A stretch of DNA of 34,084 bases, taken from contig JADEYG010000006.1 of assembly GCA_016906335.1 (NCBI GenBank), positions 62,001 through 96,084 of the forward strand, in the 5' to 3' direction. The notes under the pieces are model-generated. The model was given only the letters and a program-made list of their open reading frames with translations, made no database searches and was not told the origin of the DNA. Of this stretch, positions 2,518 through 33,150 are shown one piece after another. The stretch comes from Novakomyces olei (Eukaryota). Within the stretch, counting starts at the first letter, position 1. The number at the start of each line of letters is the position of its first letter. A program made the translations under genes and the position numbers.

Positions 2518-3303
2518 ATGTTAAATAATATATGTATTTATATATTAAACAATATATTATTAATAAATAAGATACAATTAGATGTACCTGAAGCTTGAGC
2601 TAAATATTTCCAAGATAGTTGTAGTCCTAGTTCTGAAGGTATAGTAGAATTACATAATAATGTAATGTTTTATTTAGTTGGTATAATAGTATTTGTATTT
2701 TATATGTTAATAACTATAATGATAACATATCAATATAAATATACTAATAATATAGTATATAAATATTTAAATCATGGAACTTTATTAGAATTAGTTTGAA
2801 CAATAACACCAGGTATTATATTAATATTAATAGCATTTCCATCATTTAAATTATTATATTTAATGGATGAAATAATATCACCAAGTATGACTATTAAAGC
2901 TATTGGTAATCAATGGTTTTGGTCTTATGAATATAGTGATTTCTTAGATTTAGATAATCAACCAATACAATTCGATTCTTATACTAAACCAGAATCAGAT
3001 TTAGAATTAGGTGAATTAAGATTATTAGATGTTGATCAATCATTAATTGTACCATATGATACTAATATTAGATTAATAGTTACTGCTAATGATGTTATAC
3101 ATAATTTCGCTTTACCTAGTGCTGGTATTAAATTAGATGGTTATCCTGGTAGATTAAATCAAACATCTTTATTAATTGAAAGACCTGGTATCTTTTATGG
3201 ACAATGTAGTGAATTATGTGGTGTAGGTCATAGTAATATGTCTATTGTTGTTGAAGCTGTTTCTATAGATAAATTCTTATCTTTCTTAGATAATCAATTA
3301 TAA
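2518..3303 (+). CDS. cox2: cytochrome c oxidase subunit 2 (261 aa, no intron)
   Basis: With TGA=Trp the ORF-track frame extends upstream to ATG 2518 (MLNNICIY...LDVPEAWAKYFQDS...NHGTLLELVWTITP). It contains QWFWSYEY, DVIH and the CuA motif CSELCGVGHSNM. Confidence 0.97.
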
Positions 3304-4276: not shown

Positions 4277-5158
4277 ATGACAAAAAACAATTTAATATTA
4301 TGAGAAAATAATATAATATATGATAATTTAAATTTATTAAAAGTTAGAGAATTAATAAAAAATAGTACAAAAGATATGATAGGTATATATGTTATATATA
4401 ATAAAATAACTGGTCATATTTATATAGGTTCAAGTTATAAAAATATAAGCATAAGATTTTTTAGACATATGATATATTTAACTGGTTCAAAGAAAGTAAA
4501 AAAATCAATAATAAATTATGGATTAGAAAATTTTCAATTTTTAATTATAAATTATGAATATATACATGATAATAATAATAATAATAATAATATAAATGAT
4601 TTATCATTATCAGATATAAATATGAAAAAGAAAGCTTTAAGAGATTTAGAAGAATTATTAATATTAAGATATAAACCAGAGTATAATACAATAATATGAA
4701 GTAAAAAATCAGATAAAAAGATTTTAAATTATAATGAAGATGTATTAAAAAAAATGATAAATAATTATTCTTTAGAAACAAAATTAAAAATAAAAAATGA
4801 AAATTTAAATAAAAGTTTTAATTTTAATTTTAATTTTAATCAAATTCATAGAGAAAATTTAAGTATATCTGCAAAATTAATACATAAAAATAATCCATTT
4901 AGTGAATCAATAATAAGTAAATGTATTAGTAATACAAAACCTATAAAATTATATATATGTAAAAATAAAAATGAAATATTAAAAGATAAATATTATATTT
5001 ATAATTCTATAAAAGAATTAACTATTGATTTAAATTGTTCATATAAAACTATAAATAGAGCATTAAAATATAATAAAGGATTTTTAAAAAAAGAATATTA
5101 TAGTATGTCTGCTAATATTAAATCTTATTTTTATATTGTTGTTGATAATATTAATTAA
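4277..5158 (+). CDS. free-standing intron-encoded GIY-YIG homing endonuclease (293 aa)
   Basis: With TGA=Trp, ORFs 4376-4699 and 4754-5158 join and extend to ATG 4277. Motif GIYVIYNKITGHIYIGSS, conserved R and E...YN, and a C-terminal NUMOD1-like helix-turn-helix (YNSIKELTIDLNCSYKTINRAL). Not in frame with exon 1. Confidence 0.9.
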
Positions 5159-6237: not shown

Positions 6238-6315
6238 CTATAAAAGTTTGTAAAATAAAATAAAAGTTTGTAAAATATATTAAAAATATTAAGATATATA
6301 GTAAATAAAAATATG

Positions 6316-6351
6316 TATGTATTACCATATGGTCAAATGAGTTTATGGGGT
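6316..6351 (+). CDS. cob: apocytochrome b exon 2 (36 nt, YVLPYGQMSLWG, codons 132-143)
   Basis: Conserved cytochrome b residues between the intron-terminal G (6315) and GGT (Gly143). Confidence 0.95.
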
Positions 6352-7287
6352 AAATTAAAAAGTACCATTACCATTGCCCCAAATGTGTTAAATATTTATT
6401 ATTTATTATATTTATATAATATAACTCTTTTTTATATATGTTATACTTATAATTCATTTACAGATTTACTTAATAATAATTTTATATATTCCTTTTTTAT
6501 ATTGTCAAGGAGATCTGTATCATTATCATTATCATTAAGTAGATCAATATCAACATCAACATCACTCAGAATAGGAAGTAATTTTAATTTAAATTTAAAT
6601 AAACATGATGTGAATAATAAAATAAGTTGTATAAATAAAGATTTATTAGAGTTTATAACAGGTTCCTTATTAGGTGATGGTTATTGTGAGAGAATATTAA
6701 GTAATAATAAGAATAATAGTATAGATAAAAGAGGATCAAGAATTTGTTTTTATCAAGAAGGAAGTCATAAAGAATATTTATTGTATTTACATAATTTTAT
6801 ATCTAGTAGAGGTTATTGTAATCCAAAATTACCAAAGTTAACAAGTAGAATAACTAAAGGTAACAAGTATAGATATGTAATAAGATTTCAAACATATACT
6901 TATACTTATTTCAATACTATACATGATGATTGGTATATAAATAATATAAAAGTAATACCAAAGAATATATATTTTTATAATAGTTTTACACCTTTAGCAA
7001 TAGCAATATGGATAATGGATGATGGATATAAATCATCCAAAGGTTTGAAATTATTAACAAATAGTTTTAGTAAAGATGATGTATTATATTTATCATATAT
7101 ATTAAAAGAAAAGTATTTGATAGATTCTAGAATTCATTATGTAGGTAATGGTAATGGTAATGGTATTAACGATCAATATTGTTTATACATATTAAATAAT
7201 TCAATGACTACTTTATGAGAGTTAACAAAACCTTATATTATACCTTCGATGAAATATAAGTTTGGTGATTATATAAATATAAAATAA
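6352..7287 (+). CDS. exon-fused LAGLIDADG endonuclease/maturase (I-SceI-like, LAGLIDADG_2 type)
   Basis: In frame with cob exon 2; motifs FITGSLLGDG and AIWIMDDG. TGA 7216-7218 reads as Trp, giving the typical PYIIPSMKYK tail and stop TAA at 7285-7287. Confidence 0.9.
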
Positions 7288-9045: not shown

Positions 9046-12000
9046 TATCTATAATATACATATTAATAAAAGTTTGTAAAATTATTTAACATTATTATTT
9101 ATAAATTATATATATTTAATGATAATAATATATATATAATTAATTATAAATTAAATTATATTTTATAATATTTTATAATATTTTATAATATTTAATAATA
9201 TTTTATAATATTTTATAATATTTTATAATATTTAATAATATTTTATAATATTTAATAATATTTAATATTTTTGCACCGGAACCTGAACCTGAACCTGAAC
9301 CTGCACCAAACTTATATTTCTAAATAAAATAATAAAAATAATATTGAAACTTTTAATAAACTTTTAAATATATATAATATTATATAATAATATACATAAT
9401 ATTATATAATAATATACATAGTTTTATATAATAATATAAATAATAATATGAATAATAATTATATATATATTATATTATTATTTATAAATAATAATTATAT
9501 ATATATTATATTATTATTTATAGAGAATGAGAATAGATATTTTAAATTTAAATTTAATTTTTATTTTAATAAAATGTATTGCTTTTAATTATAAATAATA
9601 TAAAATACATATATTTTATAAAATACATATCATATATATTGTCAATTTATATGTATATTGATGATATGTGATAAATATTTATTATAAGTAGACATACATT
9701 TATTATAAATAGACATGATATACATTTATATAATATTAAATATATTATATAAAAATACATACCTATATTTTATATCTATATCTATACCTATCTTATATCA
9801 ATATCTATCTTATATTTATACTTATCTTATATCTATATCTATATTTTATATCTATATCTTATATCTATATCTATCTTATATCTATTAGCCAATAAATATA
9901 TAATATTATTATACAAACTTTTATATATAATATATAATATATAATATATATTATATAATATAAGATATTTGTTGATTGATATTAAACATTAAATATTAAA
10001 TATTATATTATAAATATTATATTATAAATATATTATTATTATAATGTTTAAGAATATATAAATTAAATTATTATATATATTAATCATTTTGATAATTATA
10101 AAAATATTTAGTTAATTATAATTAATATAAATACATATCATACATTAGATCAATTTATATGTATATTGATGATATGTATTAAATTAATAATTTATATCTA
10201 ATAAATAATTTATATTTAATAAATAATTATATTTAATTTAATTATTAAATTATACACAATTAATAATATATAATAAATAATTTTAATATTTTTATATCTT
10301 ATTATAAATACTAAATATATTTTATATTTTATATTTTATAAGAAATGCATTTTATATTTTATATTTTATATTTTATATTTTATATTTTATCATAAATGTA
10401 TTTTATATTATATATCTTATCTTATTATAACTTATTATATTTAATTATATTAAATTATATCTAATTATATATTTGTGATAATAAATTAAGTATTATATGT
10501 ATATATTTATGTATATATAAATTATAATAATTATTATAATATAAATATAAAAAATATAAAATATATATCATACATTTGATATAATTTGATATATATATAT
10601 AATCTATAGAGTATAACAATCTGTAAAAATATTTGTTTTTTTACTAATATAATATTATTAATTAATATTAGTAAAATATAATTAAATAAAAATTTAATTA
10701 TAAAATGTTTTATAAAGGAATAATTAATTAAAGTATGCGAATTTATATAGAATATAGGTGTATAATATTTCAAAATATTTTATATATTAAAATTATAATA
10801 AATTAATTTATTATAAATAATTAATAAGATAAAAATATAACCTAAATGTGAAAACATATAAATAAACTTATTGAATTGAAATATCTTAGTAAATAAAGGA
10901 AAATAAATCAAAATATAAGAGATTATAATAGTAGTTAAGAACGAAATTATAATAGCCATTATAATATATATTTTATATATATTATAAATTAATTAAATTT
11001 GCTAATAATTAGTGGATTGAATAAAAGGTGAACTATCATCAAAGGCTAAATACTATATAAATATCGATAGTGAAAAGTACTGTGAAGGAAAATACTAAAA
11101 AAGTTATTCTATAAGCATATAAAGATTATAATAAAATTATAATTGATATAGTAACTTTTGTATAAGCGGTCAATAAATCTTATATTTATGCAAGATAAAA
11201 TAATAAATAATCAATATAATAATATATATATAAGTATAAATATAAGAACGCGAAACCTAATGATCTTAATTAATATAAGAGTTAAGTCTGAACCGGTGAT
11301 TGTGGCAATAATCTCGGATAATATTAGTTAAGTAGTGAAATGTTAAACGTATTAGGTTATAGCTCGTTTACAGCGAAATATATCTAAGTATAGTAATAAT
11401 ATTTATAATTAATAATGATAATGCTATTTATTATATTAGGCTTTAATATAAAAATTACTATTATAATATAATCAATGAATTATAATTAATTTAATTTATT
11501 ATTAATCAGGTTATTAGTGATAAGGTTATAATCAAATTGGAAACAACCAAACACATATAATAAGGTCCTTAAAATATTATTAAGTGTTTTTAAAGAATAA
11601 TTATAGTTTATACAATTTAAATATTAGCTTGGAAACAGCTATTATATAATGAACACGTAATAGTGTATAAATCCATTTATCTTATATATATATATTATTA
11701 TATATATATAATTAATATTATAATTAACTGAAAATTTATCGGGACTAAAATAATATACCGAATTTATGTATATTATTTTAAATATAAATAAAACTATTTA
11801 ATTTAATTAATTTAGTTTAAATAATAATATATTTATTATAATATGGTAGCTGTATATACAATATATGTATGATGTATAATAATTATAATATTATATTGAC
11901 ATATTTGTAGAAAGAATTTTGACATGAGTATTGCATAAAAGATTAATATATATAATATATATATAATTATTATAAATAAAAAAAAATAAATAATAATTAT

Positions 12001-15207: not shown

Positions 15208-16629
15208 TAATTCTTAGCCCCATATATATATATATATATGTTAACTGGATAAAAACGGTGAAGGTTATAATAAAGATTATAAATAACACCGTGGTAATCA
15301 TAATAATAAATAAATATGACACTGTAACGACTAAATAAAATAAAATAAATTTGACTAACAAGTTATATATAATATATTATATATAAAATAATAGTTGGTA
15401 ATACTTCCAGCAACAATATAATAATATGGTTATTTATATATTTTTGAATATATATATCCTTATTAATTGTATATAATATAGATAATTAATAAATAAAAAA
15501 TAATAAAACAAATAATGATAAAACAAAGAATATTAGAATATTAGAAGATTTAATAAAATTAAGATTAATAACACCATTAAAACCATTATCAAATGATATT
15601 TTAAAGATAATAGAAAAAAACTTATTAAAATATAAAATATTAAATGTAGATAATATAAATGATGAGTATATAAGTGGTATAATACAATCAGATGGTAGTT
15701 TTTCATTAACTATAAGAAAAACAAGAGATTATATACATATAGTACCAAAATTTACATTAAGATTAAATAAGAATAATAAAGATTTGATATTAAAAATTAA
15801 AAGTGTATTAGGTGATGTAGGTAATTGAAGTTTAAATAAGAAAGATAATACAATATGTTATGAAGTGACAAAATTAAAAGATTTAGATCAAGTAATAATA
15901 CCTTTTTTTACAAAAAATGATTTAAAAAGTAATAAACATTTAAATAGTTTTATAATATTAAAATACATTGTATCAATAATGAAAAGAAAACTTCATATTA
16001 AGGATAATAGATTATTGTTAGATATGATAATATTAGGTAGTAAAATGAATGATAATTATTTGTATAAAGATATACATAAAAAATCAATAAATATAATTCA
16101 TAATGATGAAAAATATAAAAAAGATATGATGAAATATGTAAGATATTTAAATAAAAGTCAACAAGATATTGTAATAGATCAATTATTAACAAAAAATACT
16201 GAATTAGAAATAAATAATATGATGTATAATTATAATCCTACATCATTTAACGCAATGTATTTGCATGGTTTAATAGATGGAGATGGATCTATTATAATAT
16301 ATAACTCTTTATCTAAATATGTAAGATTTACTATAAGTATAGCACAAGATTATACAAATTTAACATTACTTAAAGATTTATATAAATATTTTGGTGAAAT
16401 AGGTAGTATAACTAAAATATCAAATAAAGGTTATAGATATGATATAAAAAGTAAAAAGGATATTATAGAAAAAGTAATACCTTTATTAGAATACAAATAT
16501 AATAATAATATTCATTTAGGTGTATTAAAAGGTTATAAATTAATATTAATGAAAATAATATGGGATATAAAAAATATATAATATATATAAATAATTTATA
16601 TATTGTTGAAGATATAGTCTAAATAAAAG
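15208..16629 (+). mobile_element. group I intron (IA-like, probably IA3) in rnl at ~L2584
   Basis: Interrupts GAGTTGGGT|TAAGAACGTCG. P1 GGGT/GCCC. Core CTGGATAAAAACGGTGAAG, AACACCGTGGTAA, CTGTAACGACTA, GAAGATATAGTCT; ends in G. Confidence 0.88.
15493..16581 (+). CDS. double-motif LAGLIDADG homing endonuclease (~362 aa, start uncertain)
   Basis: With TGA=Trp the frame is open from ATA 15493. Motifs YISGIIQSDGSF (~15667) and YLHGLIDGDGSI (~16258). No in-frame ATG precedes motif 1. Confidence 0.85.
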
Positions 16630-20763: not shown

Positions 20764-21036
20764 ATGAATACAGGTATATTATTATATATAATTGGTTTAT
20801 ATGGATTTATTAGTAATAGAAAAAATATAATAATTATGTTAATAAGTATAGAAATTATTTTAATATCAACTACTTTTATGTTATTATTAAGTAGTTATTA
20901 TTATGATGATATATTAACACAATTATATAGTATATATATAATATCTATTGCTGGTGCAGAATCAGCTATAGGTTTAGGTATTATTGTTAGTTATTATAAT
21001 ATTCATGGTAATGTTATAATACAAAAATATCAATAA
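20764..21036 (+). CDS. nad4L: NADH dehydrogenase subunit 4L (90 aa)
   Basis: NRKNIIIMLISIE and AGAESAIGLG motifs. Confidence 0.97.
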   Translation: MNTGILLYIIGLYGFISNRKNIIIMLISIEIILISTTFMLLLSSYYYDDILTQLYSIYIISIAGAESAIGLGIIVSYYNIHGNVIIQKYQ

Positions 21037-21475
21037 ATATTATTTATAATTTAATATTATATATATATATTTATATATATATTATTATCAAATATTTAAT
21101 ATTTATTATATTATCAAATTATTTAATTAAAGTATATATATGATTATGATTATGATTATGATTATAATTATCATTATTATTATAATTATGATTAAATATA
21201 TTGTATATTAATATAAAATAAATTATATATAAAATATAAATTTATAATAATGAAGTTTGTAATATAACTTAGGTTTATAAATAAAAAAATTAAAAATTTT
21301 TATTTAATAAAATATTTAACTCATTTATTGATATAAATATTAAATATATTTAGTATTTTATTAAATGTTATATATTTAATATAATTTAATATAATTAAAT
21401 ATGAAATATATTAAATATAAATGATATATTTGATTTGATATAAAAGGATATATTATATATTAAAATATATCTAAG

Positions 21476-21546
21476 TTATTTTTATTGTTATTTTTATTGT
21501 TATTTTTATTGTTATTTTTATTGTTATTTTTATTGTTATTGTTATT
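21476..21546. repeat. (GTTATTTTTATT)n x5 in the nad4L-nad5 spacer
   Basis: Seen directly. Confidence 0.88.
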
Positions 21547-22021
21547 AAATTAAATGAAATAATAATATTATTATAATTAAAATTTTAATTTGTATTTTTG
21601 TAGAAAGAATTAATAAATAAAATATTAAATAAATTAATTTAATTAAAAGTAAAAGCTTTTATTATTTTTATTATATTTAATTATTATAATATAATATACA
21701 ATATTAATAACATATATAAAAGTTTGTAATATATAATATTAATAATATATATGATATAAAAGTTTGTAATATACAATATAAATAATATACCATATTGATT
21801 TGATAATATAATAAATATTAAATATTAGATAATAATATATATTATATATATAATATTAAATTATAGATAATAGGTTGTTATATATTAATATATAATAAAT
21901 AAGAGTTTGTAAAATAAATATACTAATTTATAAGAATAATAGTTTACTTTATATATATGTATATATATATAATAAATATATTATAATTATATGATAATAA
22001 AATAAAAATTTTAAAGAATAA

Positions 22022-23665
22022 ATGTATTTATGTATATTATTATTACCATTATTAAGTTCAATATCGAGTGGATTATTAGGAAGAAAGATAGGTATAAGAG
22101 GTAGTCAGATATTATCAAGTACATTTATGATAATATCAATGTTAATAACATTATATACATATAAACATATAGTAATTGATGATAATATAATAACAATAAA
22201 TATAATAAATTGATTAAATATAGAATCATTAAATATAAATTATTTAATATTATTAGATTCTTTAAGTATATCAATGTTAATACCAATAACAATAATATCA
22301 ACATTAGTACATATATATACAATATCATATATGAGTAGTGATCCTCATCAACAAAGATTTTTAAGTTATATATCATTATTTACATTTTTTATGATGTTAT
22401 TAGTAACAGGTTCAAGTTATTTAATAATGTTTATAGGATGAGAAGGTATAGGTGTAAGTTCATTTTTATTAATAAATTTCTGGTTTCAAAGTATAGAATC
22501 AAATAAATCAAGTATTAGTGCTATATTAGTTAATAGAGTTGGAGATATATTTATAACAATATCAATAGCTTTAATATATTATACTTATGGTAATCATAAT
22601 TATAATACAATTAATAGTATAAGTATTTATATAAATAATAATACAATATTATTTACAATAGGTTTATGTTTATTATTAGGTAGTATGGCAAAATCAGCTC
22701 AAGTACCATTAAATAAATGGTTACCAGAATCTATGGTAGCACCAACACCTACATCTGCTTTATTACATGCAGCTACTTTAGTTACTGCTGGTGTATATTT
22801 ATTAATTAGATCTTCTTATATTATAGAATTAAATGATACTTTATTAATTATTATTATGTTTGTTGGTGGTTTAACAACTATTATTAGTGGTTTAATTGGA
22901 GTATTACAATATGATGTAAAAAGAATAATAGCATATAGTACTTGTAGTCAAATTGGTATGTGTTTTGTTTCTATAGGTATATCTAATTATAATTTATCTT
23001 TATATCATTTAATTAATCATAGTATGTATAAAGCTTTATTATTCTTATGTGCAGGTATAATAATTCATTCATTAAATGATGAACAAGATATTAGAAAAAT
23101 GGGTGGTTTAATAAATTATTTACCATTTACTTATAGTTGTATGTTAATAGCTAGCTTTTCTTTAATGGCTATACCATCTTTAAGTGGTTATTATAGTAAA
23201 GATTTAATTATAGAATTAACTTATGGTAAATATTGTATAAGTTCAATAATATGTTTTTATTTAAGTTTAATTAGTGCTATAACAACTAGTTTATATTCTA
23301 TGAAAATATTATATAATATTTTTTTAAATATACCAAATAATAGTAGAAAATTTAATTATATTAATTGTTTAGAAAGTGATATATTTATGATAATACCTTT
23401 AGTTTTATTAACTTTATTAAGTATATTTATTGGATATTTAACTTCAGATATATTTATTGGACCAGGTTCAATATTATATTCAGATACTTTATTTAATAAA
23501 CCTTTTAGTAATAATATATTAGATTTAGAATTTAATATACCAATTTATATAAAATTATTACCATTAATTGGTAGTATATTTTTTAGTTTATTATTATTAT
23601 ATTCATATGAAATATTACAAAATAAATTTATTAAAAATAAATATAATAATATTGATATAAATTAA
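22022..23665 (+). CDS. nad5: NADH dehydrogenase subunit 5, main frame (547 aa, stops before the conserved C-terminal segment)
   Basis: Continuous with TGA=Trp: [55 protein letters not shown] at 23663-23665. Confidence 0.96.
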
Positions 23666-24024
23666 GTAATATAAATTATATATTAAAAAGTAATAAATTA
23701 ATATTAAATATTTTTACATTTATTAATCAAAGATTTTATCATGATATTATATATAATAGATATTTAACTATTACACCTTTAAATTTAGGTTATGTATATT
23801 ATAATATATTTGATAAAGGTATAATAAATAAAATAGGTCCAAATGGATTATATTATACTTTAAAAAATTATTCATCTAATATTATTTATCTTAATAATGG
23901 TAAATTATTTAATTATATTATTTACTTATTATTATTAATTATATTAAGTTTTTATATAAGTTTCTTTAATATTTCTGATCAATTATTCTTATTATTCTTT
24001 ATTATATCTTTATACTTTATATAA
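23650..24024 (+). CDS. nad5: nad5 C-terminal segment in a shifted frame (lateral helix and last TM region), no ATG
   Basis: Open frame reads ...NIFTFINQRFYHDIIYNRYL...LGY...FDKGIINKIGPNGL...NNGKLFNYIIYLLL..., matching the fungal Nad5 C-terminal pattern (FxNQRF, YN, DKG, GPxG). TAA at 24022-24024. Confidence 0.9.
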
Positions 24025-24154
24025 TTATTATTATTATTACTCTTTTATTTAATATTTAATAATATAATATAATATTATTTAATAATATTTATAATTAAAG
24101 TATATAAATATAATATTTAATAATAATTATTAATGGTAATAAACCATAAACACT

Positions 24155-24226
24155 TATTTTATAGTTAAATAGGTATAACATAATACTTCTAATATTATAT
24201 TATAGGTTCGAGTCCTATTGAAATAA
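24155..24226 (+). tRNA. trnR: tRNA-Arg (UCU)
   Basis: TATTTTA/TGAAATA acceptor; TAATA-CTTCTAA-TATTA; ATAGG-TTCGAGT-CCTAT. Confidence 0.92.
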
Positions 24227-27200
24227 GAAATAAGAAATAAGTAATAAATACCTTTAACTATATTAAATATATTAATATATAATAATTCATAATAAATAAA
24301 TATATTAATTATATATTAAAAATACTAAATATATTAATAATATATCTTATTATTTATTTATATAATATAATATAATATAATATCAAAGTCTTTAAAATAC
24401 ATATAAATATATATATAAATATCAAAGTCTTTAAAATACATATAACATATAACATATACATATAACATATAACATATACATATAACATATAACATATACA
24501 TATAACATATAACATATACGTATATTATACTTAATATTATATTAATTTATAGTTAGTTATAATAGTATTAATAATAATATATAATAATATATGAAATATA
24601 TAATTATTATATACAAATATATAAGATATGAATATATATAAATATATAAATATATTTAATATAATATATTTACTTTACAGTAGGTATATAATATATAATT
24701 AATAATTTAATATTGATAAATATAAATATTAAATAATATAATATAATATATTGCATATATTATATTCACTATATTAAAGTTTATAAAATATAAAAACATT
24801 AGATTTATTTATACATTTATATTATAGTTTATAATATCAAATATCTAAATATAATATATATATCTTATAATATCAAATATCTAAATAATATATATATATA
24901 TTAACTATATAATAGTAACATTTAATATACATATACATATAATATTTAATACTTATATAACATTTAATATACATATAACATTTAATATAAATATTAATAT
25001 CAAAGTCTTTAAAATACATTTAATATACATTTAATATACATATCTACAATATATAATATAGTTTATTTAATAATATAGTATATTTAATAATATAGTATAT
25101 TTAATATAATATATTTTAGTTTATTTAATATATTATTATATTTAATATAATATATAATACTTTTAAAATAAGTATATTACTATTAATAATAACTTATAAA
25201 TAATATTTAATATTAAATATATGGTATTTATTATATAATAAAAAATGTACTATTCTATTAAGTAGGATATATCTATCCTTTGTAATCAATAATGTATAAT
25301 ATTAGTAAAACATTAATATAATCTTGATAAACATAGCATAGCATAGGTAAAAACTTGTTAAATATTAGTATAATATATAAATATATTGATATAGATATAT
25401 AAATATATAAATATATAGGTATAGGTAGATATAGATATATAATATATATATAATAATAATAGATATAGATAGATAGATATAGATAATAATATATAATATA
25501 GATATAGATAATAATATAATAATATATATAAATAATATAATATATAATATAAATAATATAATATATAATATAAATAATATAATATATAATATATATAAGT
25601 ATAATAATATATAAATATAATATCTACTGATATAATAGAATATATATATATATTATATAATAATTATACATAATATAATATCTAGTAATATAATATATTA
25701 CATATATTATATCTAATAATAATAGATAAATATAAAACATTAGATAATATTATACTTAATAATTAATATATATAATATAATAATATACCCTTATAATTAA
25801 TATATTATAATATAATATATCTTATATATATATATAATATCTTATAAATAAATAATATAAGTATAAGTATATAATAATAAGTATATATACATTACTATAA
25901 TAAGTATATACATAAATATATAATAAGATATACATATAATAGATATAAATAATATATTAAATATATAACCAATATATATTAAATATAAATAATATTATAA
26001 TAAATATAATATTACATGTATAATATAATAATATATAAACATATAAATATATAAATATATAAATATAAAGTTTATATGTTAAACATCATTTAACCATACC
26101 TGAACTATAATATTAAAGAATATACAATATATTTATTTATAGTAATAATATTAAAGAATATACAATATATTTATTTATAGTAATAAAATAATTAATTATA
26201 TATATATACAACATATACATATATTAATTTATATATATATACATATTAATTTATATATACATATTAATAAATAATATATTTAATATAATAATATATTCTT
26301 AAATATAAAAGTAATATATATTAAAATAATTAATAATTATAGTTATAATAATAATAATTAATATTATTATAGTAATAATTTAAAGATAATTATAATAAAT
26401 AATATCAAATAATATAATATATGTAATATATTATATCTAATAATAATATATAAAGTATAAAACATTTGTTATTATAATTAATTATATCTATAAATTATAA
26501 ATATATTATTAATAAAATAATAATAATTTATATAAATTATATTTATATATAATATACATATACATATAATATACATAGTTAATATTTTATATACATATAT
26601 AATATCCATAGTTAATATTTTATATACATACTAAATATTTAGTACATATATATAATATAGATATATTTTATATAGATATTAATATATAATATAGATATAT
26701 ATATATATAATATATATAAAGATATAAAGATGTAATATACATATATAAATATAATATAGATATATAAAATATTAAATAAATATATTAAATATAGTATATA
26801 TATTAAATATAAATCTAAATATAATATATTAATATAATCCAGTAAATATAATTCAACCATACTTGAATAATAATATTAAAGAACTTATTAAATATAATAA
26901 TATATTAAACATAATAATTTATTAAATAATATAATATAGATAAATATATAAAATATATTAAATATCATAATTTATATATATAATTATAATTCTAATTGTT
27001 ATAATTATAATTTATATTGTTATTATATAAATTATCCATTAACTATAATTATATAATAAATCTAATAAAATAATATAATATATTGCATATATTATATCTA
27101 ATAATAATAAATAAATATAAAAACATTTGATATTTTATTTATTAATAATATTTATATTTATTAATAATATATAATTTAACTATAAATATATAAATATATA

Positions 27201-28328
27201 ATATAGATATATAAATATGATATATGATATATAATATATATATATATAATATTAAAATAAATATATCTTTTCTATTATTTACAATAGATAAATATATTAA
27301 ATATAATAAATATAAAATAATATAAAATAAATATAAATAAAAAATATAAATAAATTTAAAGTCTTTGATTATATTAATAAGAATCAATATATAATTTAAA
27401 AGATCTTAGATTATATATAATATATATAAATTATAAATTAACATTACCTTTCCTTTATAGTAAATTATAAACTATATTAAATAATATATATTATAATATA
27501 CTTAATATAATATACTTTATATTAAATATTAAATATAATATATTAAATATTTAATATTTAATAATATAATCTAATATAATCTAATATACATATACTTTTA
27601 TATTAAATAAAATAATATAAAGTTAATATCTAATCTAATATATTAAATAAAATAATATAAAGTTAATATATAATATATATAATAATAATGTATATTAAAT
27701 ATATATATATATAATATTTAGATAATATACTTTATCTATAAAGTTAATAAATATAATATCAAATAATATAATATATTGCATATATTATATCTAATAGTTA
27801 TAGATATATGTATAAAAACATTAGATATTTTAATAAAATATATAAATAATATATACAAATATATATATACATATAAATAATATATTTATAAATATAAATA
27901 TAATATCTATAAACTAATAAATATAAAATATAAATAAATTTAAAGTCTTTGATATAATATAAAATATAAATAAATTTAAAGTCTTTGATATAATATTAAT
28001 TATAAATAAATTTAAAGTCTTTGATATAATATTAATAAGAATCTATATATTATTTAAGAAATATTAAATTAGATTTAATATAATAAATAATAATATATAA
28101 TATAATATAATATAATATATTAAATATAATATATATAAGATAATATTAATAGTATAAATAACATTATATAAATATAATATATATATATATTTTAATAAGT
28201 AATAAATAATAAATAATAAATAATAATATATAAATATTAAATATATATAAAGATATAAATATTATTATTCTATAAAGATAGAATGATAGTAGGAGCAAAA
28301 ATAATAACTATAAAAATAATAGTTATGT

Positions 28329-28433
28329 AAATAATTATATAAATAAAAATAATTATATAAATAAAAATAATTATATAAATAAAAATAATTATATAAATAA
28401 AAATAATTATATAAATAAAAATAATTATATAAA
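28329..28433. repeat. ~18-bp tandem repeat (ATAATTATATAAATAAAA) x5-6 bracketed by inverted GGWGCAAAAA motifs
   Basis: Seen directly. Confidence 0.85.
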
Positions 28434-29543
28434 TTTTTTGCACCATAACTTATGTTTATATTAAAACTATATTTTATAGACTCATCATATATTTTATAGA
28501 TTTATCTATTATCATATATATATTAAATATATATATATATTAATTATTTATATTTATAATATTATACTTTATATAATATATTATTAATATATCAAATCAA
28601 ATACTTAATATTTTATACAATATACAATATAACAATATAATATAACAATATATTTAATATTAAATAAAATAATATAATACTTAATATAAGTTAAGTTATA
28701 TATATTATAATATATATAATATATTACATATATTATATCTAATATCTATATAAAGATATATAAAAACATTAGATTTATTTAATTAAATTAAATTAGATTA
28801 ATAACTTATAAAACTATTAATTAAAACTATATTAATATTTTAAAGTTATTATTAAATATAATAATATATAATAATATATAATAATATATAATAATATTTA
28901 ATAATATATAATAATATTTAATATAAGCTTATTATTATATCATAATAATATATTTGATATATATATATATATATATATAATTATTATAATAATATAATAT
29001 ATAATAATAATATATTTAATATAATTATAATATAAGATATATATATAATAATGATAGTAATAATATATAAGTTTATAAAATAATACATATATTAAATATA
29101 TGTATATGTATATAATATAAATATAAATATAAATATTAATAATTAATATATAAATATAAATATAATATTAATATAAATATAAATATAAATTATAGAGATA
29201 TATAATTAAATATATAAATATAAATATAAATATAAATTATAGAGATATATAATTAAATATATAACTTGATATCTGGTGAAAAAAATTTATATCTAAAATT
29301 TTTGCACCTACTTTAATATAACATTTATAATATTTTATTCATTAACTATATACAAATATTTTATTTATTATTTATTAAACTTAATATAAATACTTTATTA
29401 AAACTTAATATAAATACTTAATTAATAATTAACAATGATCAATTTATATAATTATTTATTTTTAAAATAAAATAAAAGTTTTTAAAATAAAATAAAATAA
29501 AATAAAAGTTTTTAAAATAAAATAAAATAAAATACAATAAATA

Positions 29544-29620
29544 CATTATCATTATCATTATCATTATCATTATCATTATGATTATCATTATTATTATCAT
29601 TATGATTATCATTATGATCA
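29544..29620. repeat. (ATTATC/ATTATG)n microsatellite
   Basis: Seen directly; explains the spurious minus-strand poly-Ile/Met ORF. Confidence 0.88.
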
Positions 29621-31409
29621 TATATATAATATATATATATAATTTAATTAAATAATAGGTTTTAAATAAAAATATATATATTATTTATTAATTTTAACAA
29701 TAAATTAAATACAATTACTAATAATTATATTTAATACTAATAAATAAACATTATAGTATTAATTAATCTTTAATTATGGTGCAAAAAAATATTTATTATT
29801 TTTTAATATTATTTATAATAATCATATTATTTATAATAATCATATTATTTATAATACTAAACTAATATCATTAATTATATTAAATATTATCCATTAATTA
29901 TATTAAATCAAATATTATCATTAATTATCATTAATTATATCGAATATATTATAATTATTATATATTTAATATAATATATAATATATAACTTATTTTAAAA
30001 TAAAAGTTTTAATATTTAATAATGGTTTTAATTAATAAATAAAATATAGTAATTTATTTTTTTATAATATTTTAAAGAAGTCTTAGTCTATAATATATTT
30101 AATATTTAATATAATATATTTAATATAATATAATATAATAAAATAAACATTATAGTATTAATTAATCTTTATTTAAAAGCATTAAGTATATTTATAATTA
30201 TAATTATTTTATAATCTTATTAAAATATTATTATTTATTACTATGATCTAATACTAGATATTATTAATATTATTTAATAATATAATATTATCCAATTATT
30301 ATATATAATATAATAATAATAATAATCTATTTAATAATTTAATGATATTATATTTTTACAAACTAAACTAAAATAAAATAAAATAAAATAAAAGTTTTTA
30401 AAATAAAATAAAATAAAATAAAATAAAATAAAATAAAATAAAATAAAAGTTTTTAAAATAAATTAAATTAAATTAAATTAAACTTTAATAAATTTATATT
30501 AATAATTTAAGATATGTTTAAATAAACATTATATTAATAATTTAAGATATGTTTAAATAAACATTATAATATTAATTAGTCTTTATTTAAAAGCATTAAG
30601 TATTTATTTATATTATATATAACTTATATTAAAATTAAAAAGTAGATTATATTAAATATAATATAATATAATATAATAAAGTTTATACAATTATATATAT
30701 ATATTAATATAAATATAAGATATATATTAAACTATAGATAATTTATTAATATTATTGTTAATATATATATTATATTAAATATTAAATATTAAATATATTA
30801 TATGTATATTATATTGTAATTAAATATTATGAAATATTATTAAATATATTATTAAATATTATGTAATATTAAATATTATCATTAAATATATATATATATA
30901 TATATTTAGTATAATATAATATATAATAAACATTAAATATTAATTAATCTTTATATCTGGTGCAAAAAATTTAAAATTTAAATTTTTTATATTATTTATA
31001 TATTACAAACTTTTATATCATATATATAATATATGTAATATATTATATATATCCATTATATCTTTATTTATTGATTGGTTAATATACAATATTATTAAAT
31101 ATACATACATATCTATAATAATAATCTATTATTATATTATTATACTATTTCAATATATATATATATACACATATATATAATATATCTATATTATATAATT
31201 AATATTTTATTTATAAGATTTTATTAAATATATTTATAATTAATTATTTTATATATATTTTTCTATAACTATATAATGGTTTATATTAAATATTATTATT
31301 ATTAAAGATATTATTATTAAGAATATTATTATTAAAAATATTATATAATATTAATTGTTATTATTATTATTATCATTTATTTAATATATTTTAATATGTA
31401 TATATAGAA

Positions 31410-32349: not shown

Positions 32350-33150
32350 ATGTCAAATAATATAATAATAAGTTCACCATTAGAACAATTTGAGATAATA
32401 AATTATATAGGAATAGATGCACCAATATTATTTAATCAAAGTTTATATATAACAAATTATAGTTATCATTTAATATTAAGTATAATATTCATAACATTTT
32501 TTAATATGATATATACAAGTAATAATAATAAATATGGATTATATAATCATAATTTAATAAGTAATAAATTAAGTATAGTAAATGAATCAGTATATATGAC
32601 AGCAGAGAACTTAGTTACAGGTCAAATGGGAAATAATAAGAAATATACAATATATTTACCATTAATATATTCATTATTTACATTAATATTAATTGGTAAT
32701 TTTGTAGGTATGATACCATATTCATTTAGTATAAGTTCACATTTAATATTTACATTAGGTATGAGTATAACAATATTAATAGCAGTAACTATAATTGGTT
32801 TTGAAACTCATGGTATAAAATTCTTTTCTTTCTTTGTACCATCTGGTACTCCTTTAGCTTTAGTACCTTTATTAGTTTTAATTGAATTTGTTTCATATAT
32901 TGCTAAAGGTTTAAGTTTAGGTATAAGATTAGGTGGTAATATTATTAGTGGACATTTATTATTACATATTATTAGTGGGTTTATTTTACAATTTATGAAA
33001 TCAGGTATAATTGGTTTCATATTTAGTTTATTACCTTTAACTATTTTAATATTAATGTTTGGTTTAGAATTAGCTATTAGTTATATGCAAGCTTATGTTT
33101 TCGCTATATTAACTAGTATCTATATCTCTGATTCTATTAATTTACACTAA
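32350..33150 (+). CDS. atp6: ATP synthase F0 subunit a (266 aa)
   Basis: SPLEQF after a short propeptide, FVPSGTPLAL, SLGIRLGGNIISGH with the essential Arg, QAYVF. Confidence 0.98.
   Translation: MSNNIIISSPLEQFEIINYIGIDAPILFNQSLYITNYSYHLILSIIFITFFNMIYTSNNNKYGLYNHNLISNKLSIVNESVYMTAENLVTGQMGNNKKYTIYLPLIYSLFTLILIGNFVGMIPYSFSISSHLIFTLGMSITILIAVTIIGFETHGIKFFSFFVPSGTPLALVPLLVLIEFVSYIAKGLSLGIRLGGNIISGHLLLHIISGFILQFMKSGIIGFIFSLLPLTILILMFGLELAISYMQAYVFAILTSIYISDSINLH

Follow-up and report, generated by a model that had tools for sequence, protein, structure and literature searches.

An in-frame stop at a 47-nucleotide insert divides mitochondrial nad5 of Novakomyces olei between two reading frames

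The mitochondrial gene nad5 of Novakomyces olei is interrupted, in the sequence as deposited (GenBank assembly GCA_016906335.1), by an in-frame TAA after 547 codons, and the conserved C-terminal end of the protein is encoded downstream in another frame. We analysed this break in a window of 34,084 nucleotides (nt) of contig JADEYG010000006.1 (positions 62,001 to 96,084 of the forward strand), which is part of a fungal mitochondrial genome in which TGA is read as tryptophan; all positions given below are those of the window. Alignment with homologs places the break at the 5' edge of a 47-nt insert in the linker that precedes the C-terminal domain. The insert itself looks translated in the downstream frame, the gene's downstream portion bears the marks of a working protein segment, and no positive sign of programmed recoding was found by any of the signals tested in the window. 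We give about an even chance to the reading that the break is a single unprogrammed lesion within positions 23650-23665.

Results

The nad5 gene is divided between two frames

The first part of nad5 (22022-23662, plus strand) runs for 547 codons in what is called frame 0 here and carries the Pfam domains Proton_antipo_N and Proton_antipo_M, the two matches scoring 227 and 62 bits. It ends with GAT ATA AAT and is closed by TAA at 23663-23665 on the plus strand, the coordinates that an earlier reading of the DNA letters (the sequence-only reading) had assigned to it. The remainder of the gene (23650-24024, plus strand) lies in the -1/+2 frame, referred to as the tail frame, and encodes NADH5_C and a final hydrophobic segment before a TAA at 24022-24. 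The tail frame is open over 23650-24021, giving 124 codons under translation table 4 with one TGA at 23653, and contains none of the start codons ATG, GTG and TTG. NADH5_C scores 39.9 bits in Pfam against a cut-off of 28.2 and covers tail residues 3-102. The Nad5 domain set (Proton_antipo_N, Proton_antipo_M and NADH5_C) is complete and split over the two frames.

Similarity searches gave the same division. When 40 homologs were aligned to the DNA with tblastn, 34 matched 22022-23662 with their residues 1-546 or 1-549 at 51-54% identity, five ended at 23602-23617 and one ran on across stops; a second match in the tail frame was obtained with all 40. Together with the NADH5_C score, this bears out the earlier claim of an open frame from 23650 that encodes the conserved Nad5 tail and lacks ATG. 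The tail aligns with residues 553-645 of plant Nad5 chains and with residues 549-663 of chain 7zm7_5, a region that we take to be the lateral helix and the last transmembrane helix. Stops make up 9-15% of off-frame and intergenic codons; the open, conserved tail is far beyond chance, and the nad5 break as described is real in the given sequence.

A TAA at 23647-49 shuts the tail frame upstream, and frame 0 ends at 23663-65. The zone in which the frame changes or a base is missing spans 23650-23670 on the plus strand and holds an A-AAT-TAA site as well as AAT 23668-70. Further AAT triplets are found around it: that at 23660 is in frame 0, those at 23668, 23674, 23692 and 23707 are in the tail frame, and two more, at 23696 and 23700, are out of frame. 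Just 5' of the break, the frame-0 coding sequence at 23613-23642 contains 1.9 copies of a 15-nt unit in tandem, which match at 93%.

A 47-nt insert at the break

The linker was defined as the stretch from the last helix of the N-terminal part to the conserved Phe-x-Asn-Gln/Gly-Arg/Lys motif and was compared among 120 homologs. It is 19 residues long in 113 of them, 18 in one, 30 in four and 40-41 in two. The last 17 frame-0 residues of N. olei Nad5 match the linker profile ungapped, a fit equalled by one in 5000 order shuffles, and the final three linker positions (Asn-Ile-Phe) are encoded in the tail frame at 23707-15. The frame-0 AAT at 23660-62 (Asn547) and the tail-frame AAT at 23707-09 align to one and the same homolog residue; the gene therefore holds 47 extra bases, at 23663-23709 on the plus strand, which are A or T apart from two G. 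Because 47 equals 3n+2, the frame break is tied to the insertion, and the alignment locates it at the 5' edge of the insert.

The insert is open in the tail frame and has five stops in frame 0 and three in the third frame over the same stretch; open windows of 16 codons make up only 17-18% of off-frame or intergenic ones. Its codon-usage score in the tail frame is 11.4, at the 28th percentile of true coding windows. Among 1879 open intergenic windows, 4.8% score at least as high; among 539 open off-frame windows none does, a comparison biased by the use of the off-frame set to train the model. Inside the insert lies a tandem repeat (23664-23708, plus strand) composed of a first unit of 24 nt (23664-87) and a second of 21 nt (23688-708), with a local alignment score of 30, which 6 of 3000 dinucleotide shuffles attain. 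One 2-nt and one 1-nt indel separate the units, both of which are multiples of 3 in length, and the length differences between them are frame-preserving. The whole linker region is slippage-prone. Openness, codon usage and the repeat with its unit lengths speak for the insert being translated in the tail frame. A translated insert would confine the frame change to 23650-23670 and would count against bypassing of the entire 47 nt.

No second copy of the 47-mer is present in the window, where the best other match extends over 27 nt at 93%. The idea that the insert is a diverged tandem copy of upstream coding sequence was dropped as its alignment score proved compositional: the score of 36 exceeded those of all 897 background pairs drawn from other genes, but it was reached in 414 of 2000 local dinucleotide shuffles. 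At the peptide level, too, support was weak, the fit of the 16 tail-frame residues 5' of the conserved Asn-Ile-Phe to the linker profile being equalled by 174 of 5000 order shuffles.

Conservation of the tail

The ratio of tail identity to N-part identity, measured against 20 homologs, is 0.607, and the corresponding value for 88 homolog pairs of similar divergence is 0.646 +/- 0.05. Among columns at least 90% conserved in the 120 homologs, 17 of 28 are kept in the tail and 203 of 282 in the N-part. Such values point to a working, constrained Nad5 C-terminus with no relaxation, and an unrelaxed tail would imply that the break is recent, unreal or compensated. With such a tail, the break comes down to one of three events: a ribosomal shift within 23650-23670, a sequence that is one base short there, or a recent lesion.

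Search for recoding signals

No slippery heptamer of the form X XXY YYZ occurs in 23640-23665, and 23650-23665 offers only a slip by a single transfer RNA (tRNA), at A-AAT. Neither is there a CTGY motif at the break, where the shift needed is -1/+2. For the RNA of 23640-23730 (91 nt), the folding energy is -7.4 kcal/mol (z = +0.47), a value that 136 of 200 shuffles match or better. The only local hairpin at the break consists of seven A-U pairs, and a weak outer stem is predicted between 23647-56 and 23697-706. No other frame break was found in cox2, the cob exons, nad4L, atp6, the three intron open reading frames (ORFs) or the first 547 codons of nad5. By every signal tested in the window, there is no positive sign of programmed recoding.

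The sequence-only reading had drawn attention to matched AAT codons across the stop and to a 10-nt direct repeat around it, and both are present. The matched codons lose their evidential weight: at 6.5% AAT usage, the probability of at least one AAT in 16 codons is 0.66, and a match is expected by chance. The direct repeat (23655-64 and 23669-78, plus strand, period 14) is of marginal significance. An exact repeat of at least 10 nt is present in 747 of 3000 dinucleotide shuffles of 23640-23720, and one that also spans the stop with a frame-restoring period in 118 of 3000; such repeats cover ~2% of coding positions genome-wide. The 14-nt copies around the stop are identical at 12 of 14 positions. 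The first AAT 3' of the stop in any frame, at 23668-70, is in the tail frame, which is the sequence pattern of a stop-hop and is compatible with a hop; the next A-site codon would be ATA after a hop to 23668, or TTA after a -1 slip.

Three other explanations were rejected. Stop readthrough would meet five stops in the next 16 codons of frame 0. An intron of 47 nt is too short, far below the size of group I and group II introns. Transcriptional slippage at the A5 run of 23633-37 would take place upstream of the tail-frame stop at 23647-49.

Relatives in sequence collections

The closest match to the N-part of this Nad5 has 53-54% identity. With the tail, the best match among 1.84 billion representatives has 45% identity and two matches reach E <= 1e-10; no matches were obtained when the tail was searched against longer proteins. 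Hits of 80-250 residues occur among the 150 best for the 124-residue tail query and are either genuine stand-alone tails or gene-calling fragments. A metagenome scan gave no match with the tail and a single contig with the last 187 N-part residues (44-56% identity, 32% G+C); this contig belongs to a distant fungus, and its sequence stops short of the break. Scans of viral contigs and of prokaryote genome contigs gave no match. For comparison, the nearest Cox2 among 5.8 billion proteins, a single protein from a contig of 1.7 kb, is 81% identical, and those that follow reach no more than 64%. The lineage is hardly sampled, and no close relative of this nad5 is present among the protein, metagenome, viral and prokaryote collections searched. 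No literature description of a fungal nad5 with such a break was found by a search made without the species name, which is weak evidence that the break is unpublished.

Gene context of nad5

At 12.6%, the G+C content of the whole window is very low for a mitochondrial genome in which complex I genes are retained. The window holds 15 tRNA genes including tRNA-Leu(tag), the presence of which means that CTN is read as leucine and that table 4 applies; the stop codon is TAA for all genes. In a tally of 1650 codons, TTA (237) and ATA (176) are the top two and AAT is fourth at 6.5%. The genes cox2 (2518-3300), cob (at least three exons, with intron ORFs) and atp6 (32350-33147) were named from their ORF translations. 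The 5' neighbour of nad5 is an intact nad4L (20764-21036, plus strand), named from its translation alone. The two genes are separated by a spacer of ~1 kb of A/T sequence (21037-22021); in fungi, nad4L and nad5 usually adjoin or overlap by one base. On the other side, tRNA-Arg(tct) (24154-24227, plus strand) lies 130 nt 3' of the stop of the tail.

Three intron ORFs, at 4277-5158, 6274-7287 and 15493-16581, are all intact and were named only by reading their translations. One, in cob, has a GIY...YIG-type motif; a second cob intron ORF has LAGLIDADG-type motifs and is fused to the frame of the upstream exon; the third lies within the region of the large ribosomal RNA (rRNA). The Rfam match to this rRNA (11169-11923, 73 bits) covers only model positions 619-1301, the remaining rnl being too divergent or too A/T-rich to score in Rfam. 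A small-subunit rRNA was not recognised anywhere in the window. In the gap of ~7 kb between trnR and trnV (24259-31400), ORFs of at least 90 amino acids are exclusively of low complexity and no Rfam matches occur at E <= 0.01; degenerate A/T tandem arrays with periods of 14-116 and roughly 60% matches spread over 24259-29264. The window contains no exact repeats of at least 101 nt, and the assembly technology therefore cannot be deduced from it.

Discussion

We favour, at about even chances, a single unprogrammed lesion within 23650-23665. On this account nad5 would be a normal, constrained complex-I gene with an extra low-complexity A/T stretch in the linker before its C-terminal domain. Translated in the tail frame, the stretch would form a loop of ~16 residues, and somewhere in 23650-23665, such as the A-run at 23659-61, the sequence would lack one base or, what amounts to the same, have 2 or 14 too many. 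The lesion is seen as unprogrammed because there is no recoding signal, the case is single and the insert looks translated; given such an insert, only a 1-nt discrepancy at its 5' edge would be left to explain. Longer linkers are tolerated, as 6 of the 120 homologs have 30-41 residues, and an unrelaxed tail is what is expected of a break that is recent or unreal. A survey of Saccharomycotina yeast mitogenomes reports no byp elements outside Magnusiomyces and only +1C frameshifts in Kazachstania (PMC10701893).

Two forms of such a lesion can be distinguished. A consensus or assembly error, taken by itself, is unlikely; a real slippage mutation that arose recently in the isolate sequenced is somewhat less so. 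In the latter form the isolate would make a 547-residue Nad5 without the C-terminal domain, and the tail would not yet have decayed. Of 108 words sampled from 23200-24150, a share of 0.97 is present in the sequencing runs X1 and X2, flagged as possible sources of the assembly; this would fit one discrepant site, technical or not, somewhere in that stretch, and amounts to no more than a mild nudge.

Several points weigh against a lesion of this kind. The remaining coding sequence examined (7620 nt, with 497 homopolymers of at least three bases and 54 of at least five) is free of frameshifts; with the assembly otherwise clean, an error or slippage at a 3-nt run, not in the long runs, is therefore unlikely a priori. 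The break coincides with a lineage-specific insert of 3n+2 bases, where a random lesion in a 2-kb gene would fall with a probability of ~3%, and a frame-breaking insert would account directly for this coincidence. A fresh 14-nt duplication is ruled out as the lesion, the copies differing at 2 of 14 positions. Fixation of a recent, strongly deleterious mutation in a well-kept complex-I gene is a rare event.

It is an appreciable possibility, short of an even chance, that the break is instead real and long-standing: a frame-breaking A/T insertion in the linker would be tolerated through re-pairing of tRNA-Asn at A-AAU-UAA. The tRNA could re-pair one base back or else 8 or 47 nt further on, the last across the whole insert.

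The two short-range forms, which take the DNA as given and amount to shifty-stop recoding, are a tentative but serious alternative. With tRNA-Asn on AAU 23660-62 and UAA in the A site, the tRNA would re-pair either one base back onto AAA 23659-61 or forward by 8 nt onto AAU 23668-70. The tail frame would be entered with UUA or AUA as the A-site codon, and the product would have 664-667 residues and a linker ~15 residues above the usual length. The extra 3n+2 bases start exactly at the stop, and the break would then be a property of the insert that requires no independent hit. In the tail frame the insert keeps its coding look as far 5' as 23662-70, the first AAT downstream is in that frame, the prospective A-site codons TTA and ATA are the commonest in the tally, the tail is under full constraint and the rest of the assembly is clean. 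There are precedents: synthetic E. coli constructs have established stop-hops between matched codons on either side of a stop (PMC5009743), and a Sanger-verified one-base deletion with an open downstream frame has been described in an insect nad5, where the mechanism is left unresolved (PMC8748643). Short-range re-pairing is disfavoured by the lack, in the window, of a stimulatory structure, a tandem slippery site and a second case in ~7.6 kb of other coding sequence. Unaided hops are inefficient, and an Asn anticodon on AAA would be expected to forfeit its third-position pair. Natural mitochondrial frame corrections are mostly +1, -1 cases being called rarer (PMC8748643). Of the landing sites proposed in the sequence-only reading, AAT 23668 and the -1 slip fit the evidence better than AAT 23674, which fits it worse.

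A byp-like bypass of 47 nt, with take-off at AAT 23660-62, landing at AAT 23707-09 and resumption at ATT 23710, is very unlikely. The whole insert would be skipped, yielding a product of 651 residues with the canonical 19-residue linker. Skipping exactly 47 nt gives collinearity with 113 of the 120 homologs, in keeping with the linker-profile fit of the last 17 N-part residues, and the size is near that of byp elements, for which mean lengths of ~37-39 nt with a standard deviation of 5-6 are given (PMC13461519). The weak outer stem of 23647-56 with 23697-706 also speaks for it. However, the block to be skipped is open and coding-like in the tail frame, for which the joint chance is roughly 0.17 x 0.05, and three cognate in-frame and two out-of-frame AATs precede the proposed landing site. 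The fold is no better than shuffles, and the insert is single copy in the window, with no dispersed family.

Less credible still, and the least supported of the readings put forward earlier, is a split gene in which a 547-residue Nad5 would end at the TAA and re-initiation at a codon other than ATG, for instance ATA 23671, would produce the C-terminal domain separately. In its favour, the reading frame of the tail is open from 23650 and constrained, the tail corresponds to a C-terminal module of its own in solved Nad5 chains (residues ~550-660), and the possible starts of table 4 include ATA, ATT and TTA. Against it, ATG, GTG and TTG are absent throughout the tail, no tRNA or other processing signal lies between the two nad5 parts, and to our knowledge, with no search aimed at it, no separate Nad5 C-terminal subunit exists in fungi. 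The remainder of the probability falls to explanations outside these four.

Among the closest known systems are the byp elements of Magnusiomyces. M. capitatus has byps at 81 positions in 12 of 15 genes, with an unused codon in the A site and sometimes imperfect matches (PMC5009743), and M. clavatus has 43 byps with mean lengths of ~37-39 nt and GGA as the commonest take-off codon (PMC13461519). Like these, the nad5 insert adds tens of nucleotides, absent from homologs, to a fungal mitochondrial protein gene; identical codons flank it, a non-decodable A-site codon follows the first of them, the frame is disrupted and the downstream sequence is conserved. The flanking-codon pattern here consists of AAT 23660 and AAT 23707 with TAA 23663, and three other in-frame AATs lie between them (P = 0.66). 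Unlike the byps, which occur by the dozens per genome and most commonly take off at GGA, there is one case in the 34-kb window and the take-off codon is AAT; unlike the byps, which are untranslated, the nad5 block looks translated in the downstream frame. The nad5 insert does not belong to the byp family, since that family's multi-copy character was looked for in the window and not found. The break could work like a minimal hop.

Other systems share some features with nad5. Synthetic stop-hops and shifty stops in E. coli also have matched codons flanking the stop (here AAU-UAA-GU-AAU), short re-pairing and no elaborate signal; those, however, are low-efficiency reporter events, whereas the nad5 hop would supply all functional Nad5 and change the frame. 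A review knows of no natural in-frame stop-hop (PMC5009743). In T4 gene 60, too, a take-off codon is followed by a stop and a matched landing codon across a gap of ~50 nt, as in the 47-nt reading; unlike gene 60 with its take-off hairpin and nascent-peptide signal, nad5 has no fold that beats shuffles and carries cognate codons inside the gap. Canonical -1 programmed frameshifting differs in that the nad5 break has neither an X XXY YYZ heptamer nor a significant structure. The strepsipteran Dipterophagus daci has a nad5 that is one base short, with an early TAA, an open downstream frame and the same choice between frameshifting and truncation; there the deletion, Sanger-confirmed in several individuals, lies near the 5' end of an animal gene (PMC8748643), whereas the present break lies in a lineage-specific insert near the 3' end and is known from assembly sequence alone. 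The +1C frameshift of Kazachstania is likewise a fungal mitochondrial frame defect tolerated by translation, as cited in PMC10701893; it involves an extra C at CTGY and a +1 correction, whereas nad5 needs -1/+2 and has no CTGY at the site.

New here are the 47-nt insert at the break, its coding look and the constraint on the tail. At 12.6% G+C, hardly any weight as evidence attaches to matched codons and short direct repeats near a break. Should the break turn out to be an error or a new mutation, the matter would be one of ordinary annotation, nad5 being entered as frameshifted with the lesion in 23650-23665. If it is real and conserved, a fungal mitoribosome would be able to correct a net -1 defect or hop a stop without a dedicated signal, bypassing would extend beyond the Magnusiomyces byp family, and nad5 would offer a simple system (one site, one tRNA, 8-47 nt) for the origin of bypassing. 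Outside Magnusiomyces, it would then be the first case in nature of a fungal mitochondrion performing a stop-hop or -1 correction without a signal, and would represent a minimal, ancestor-like form of bypassing that arose from local repeat slippage instead of a mobile element.

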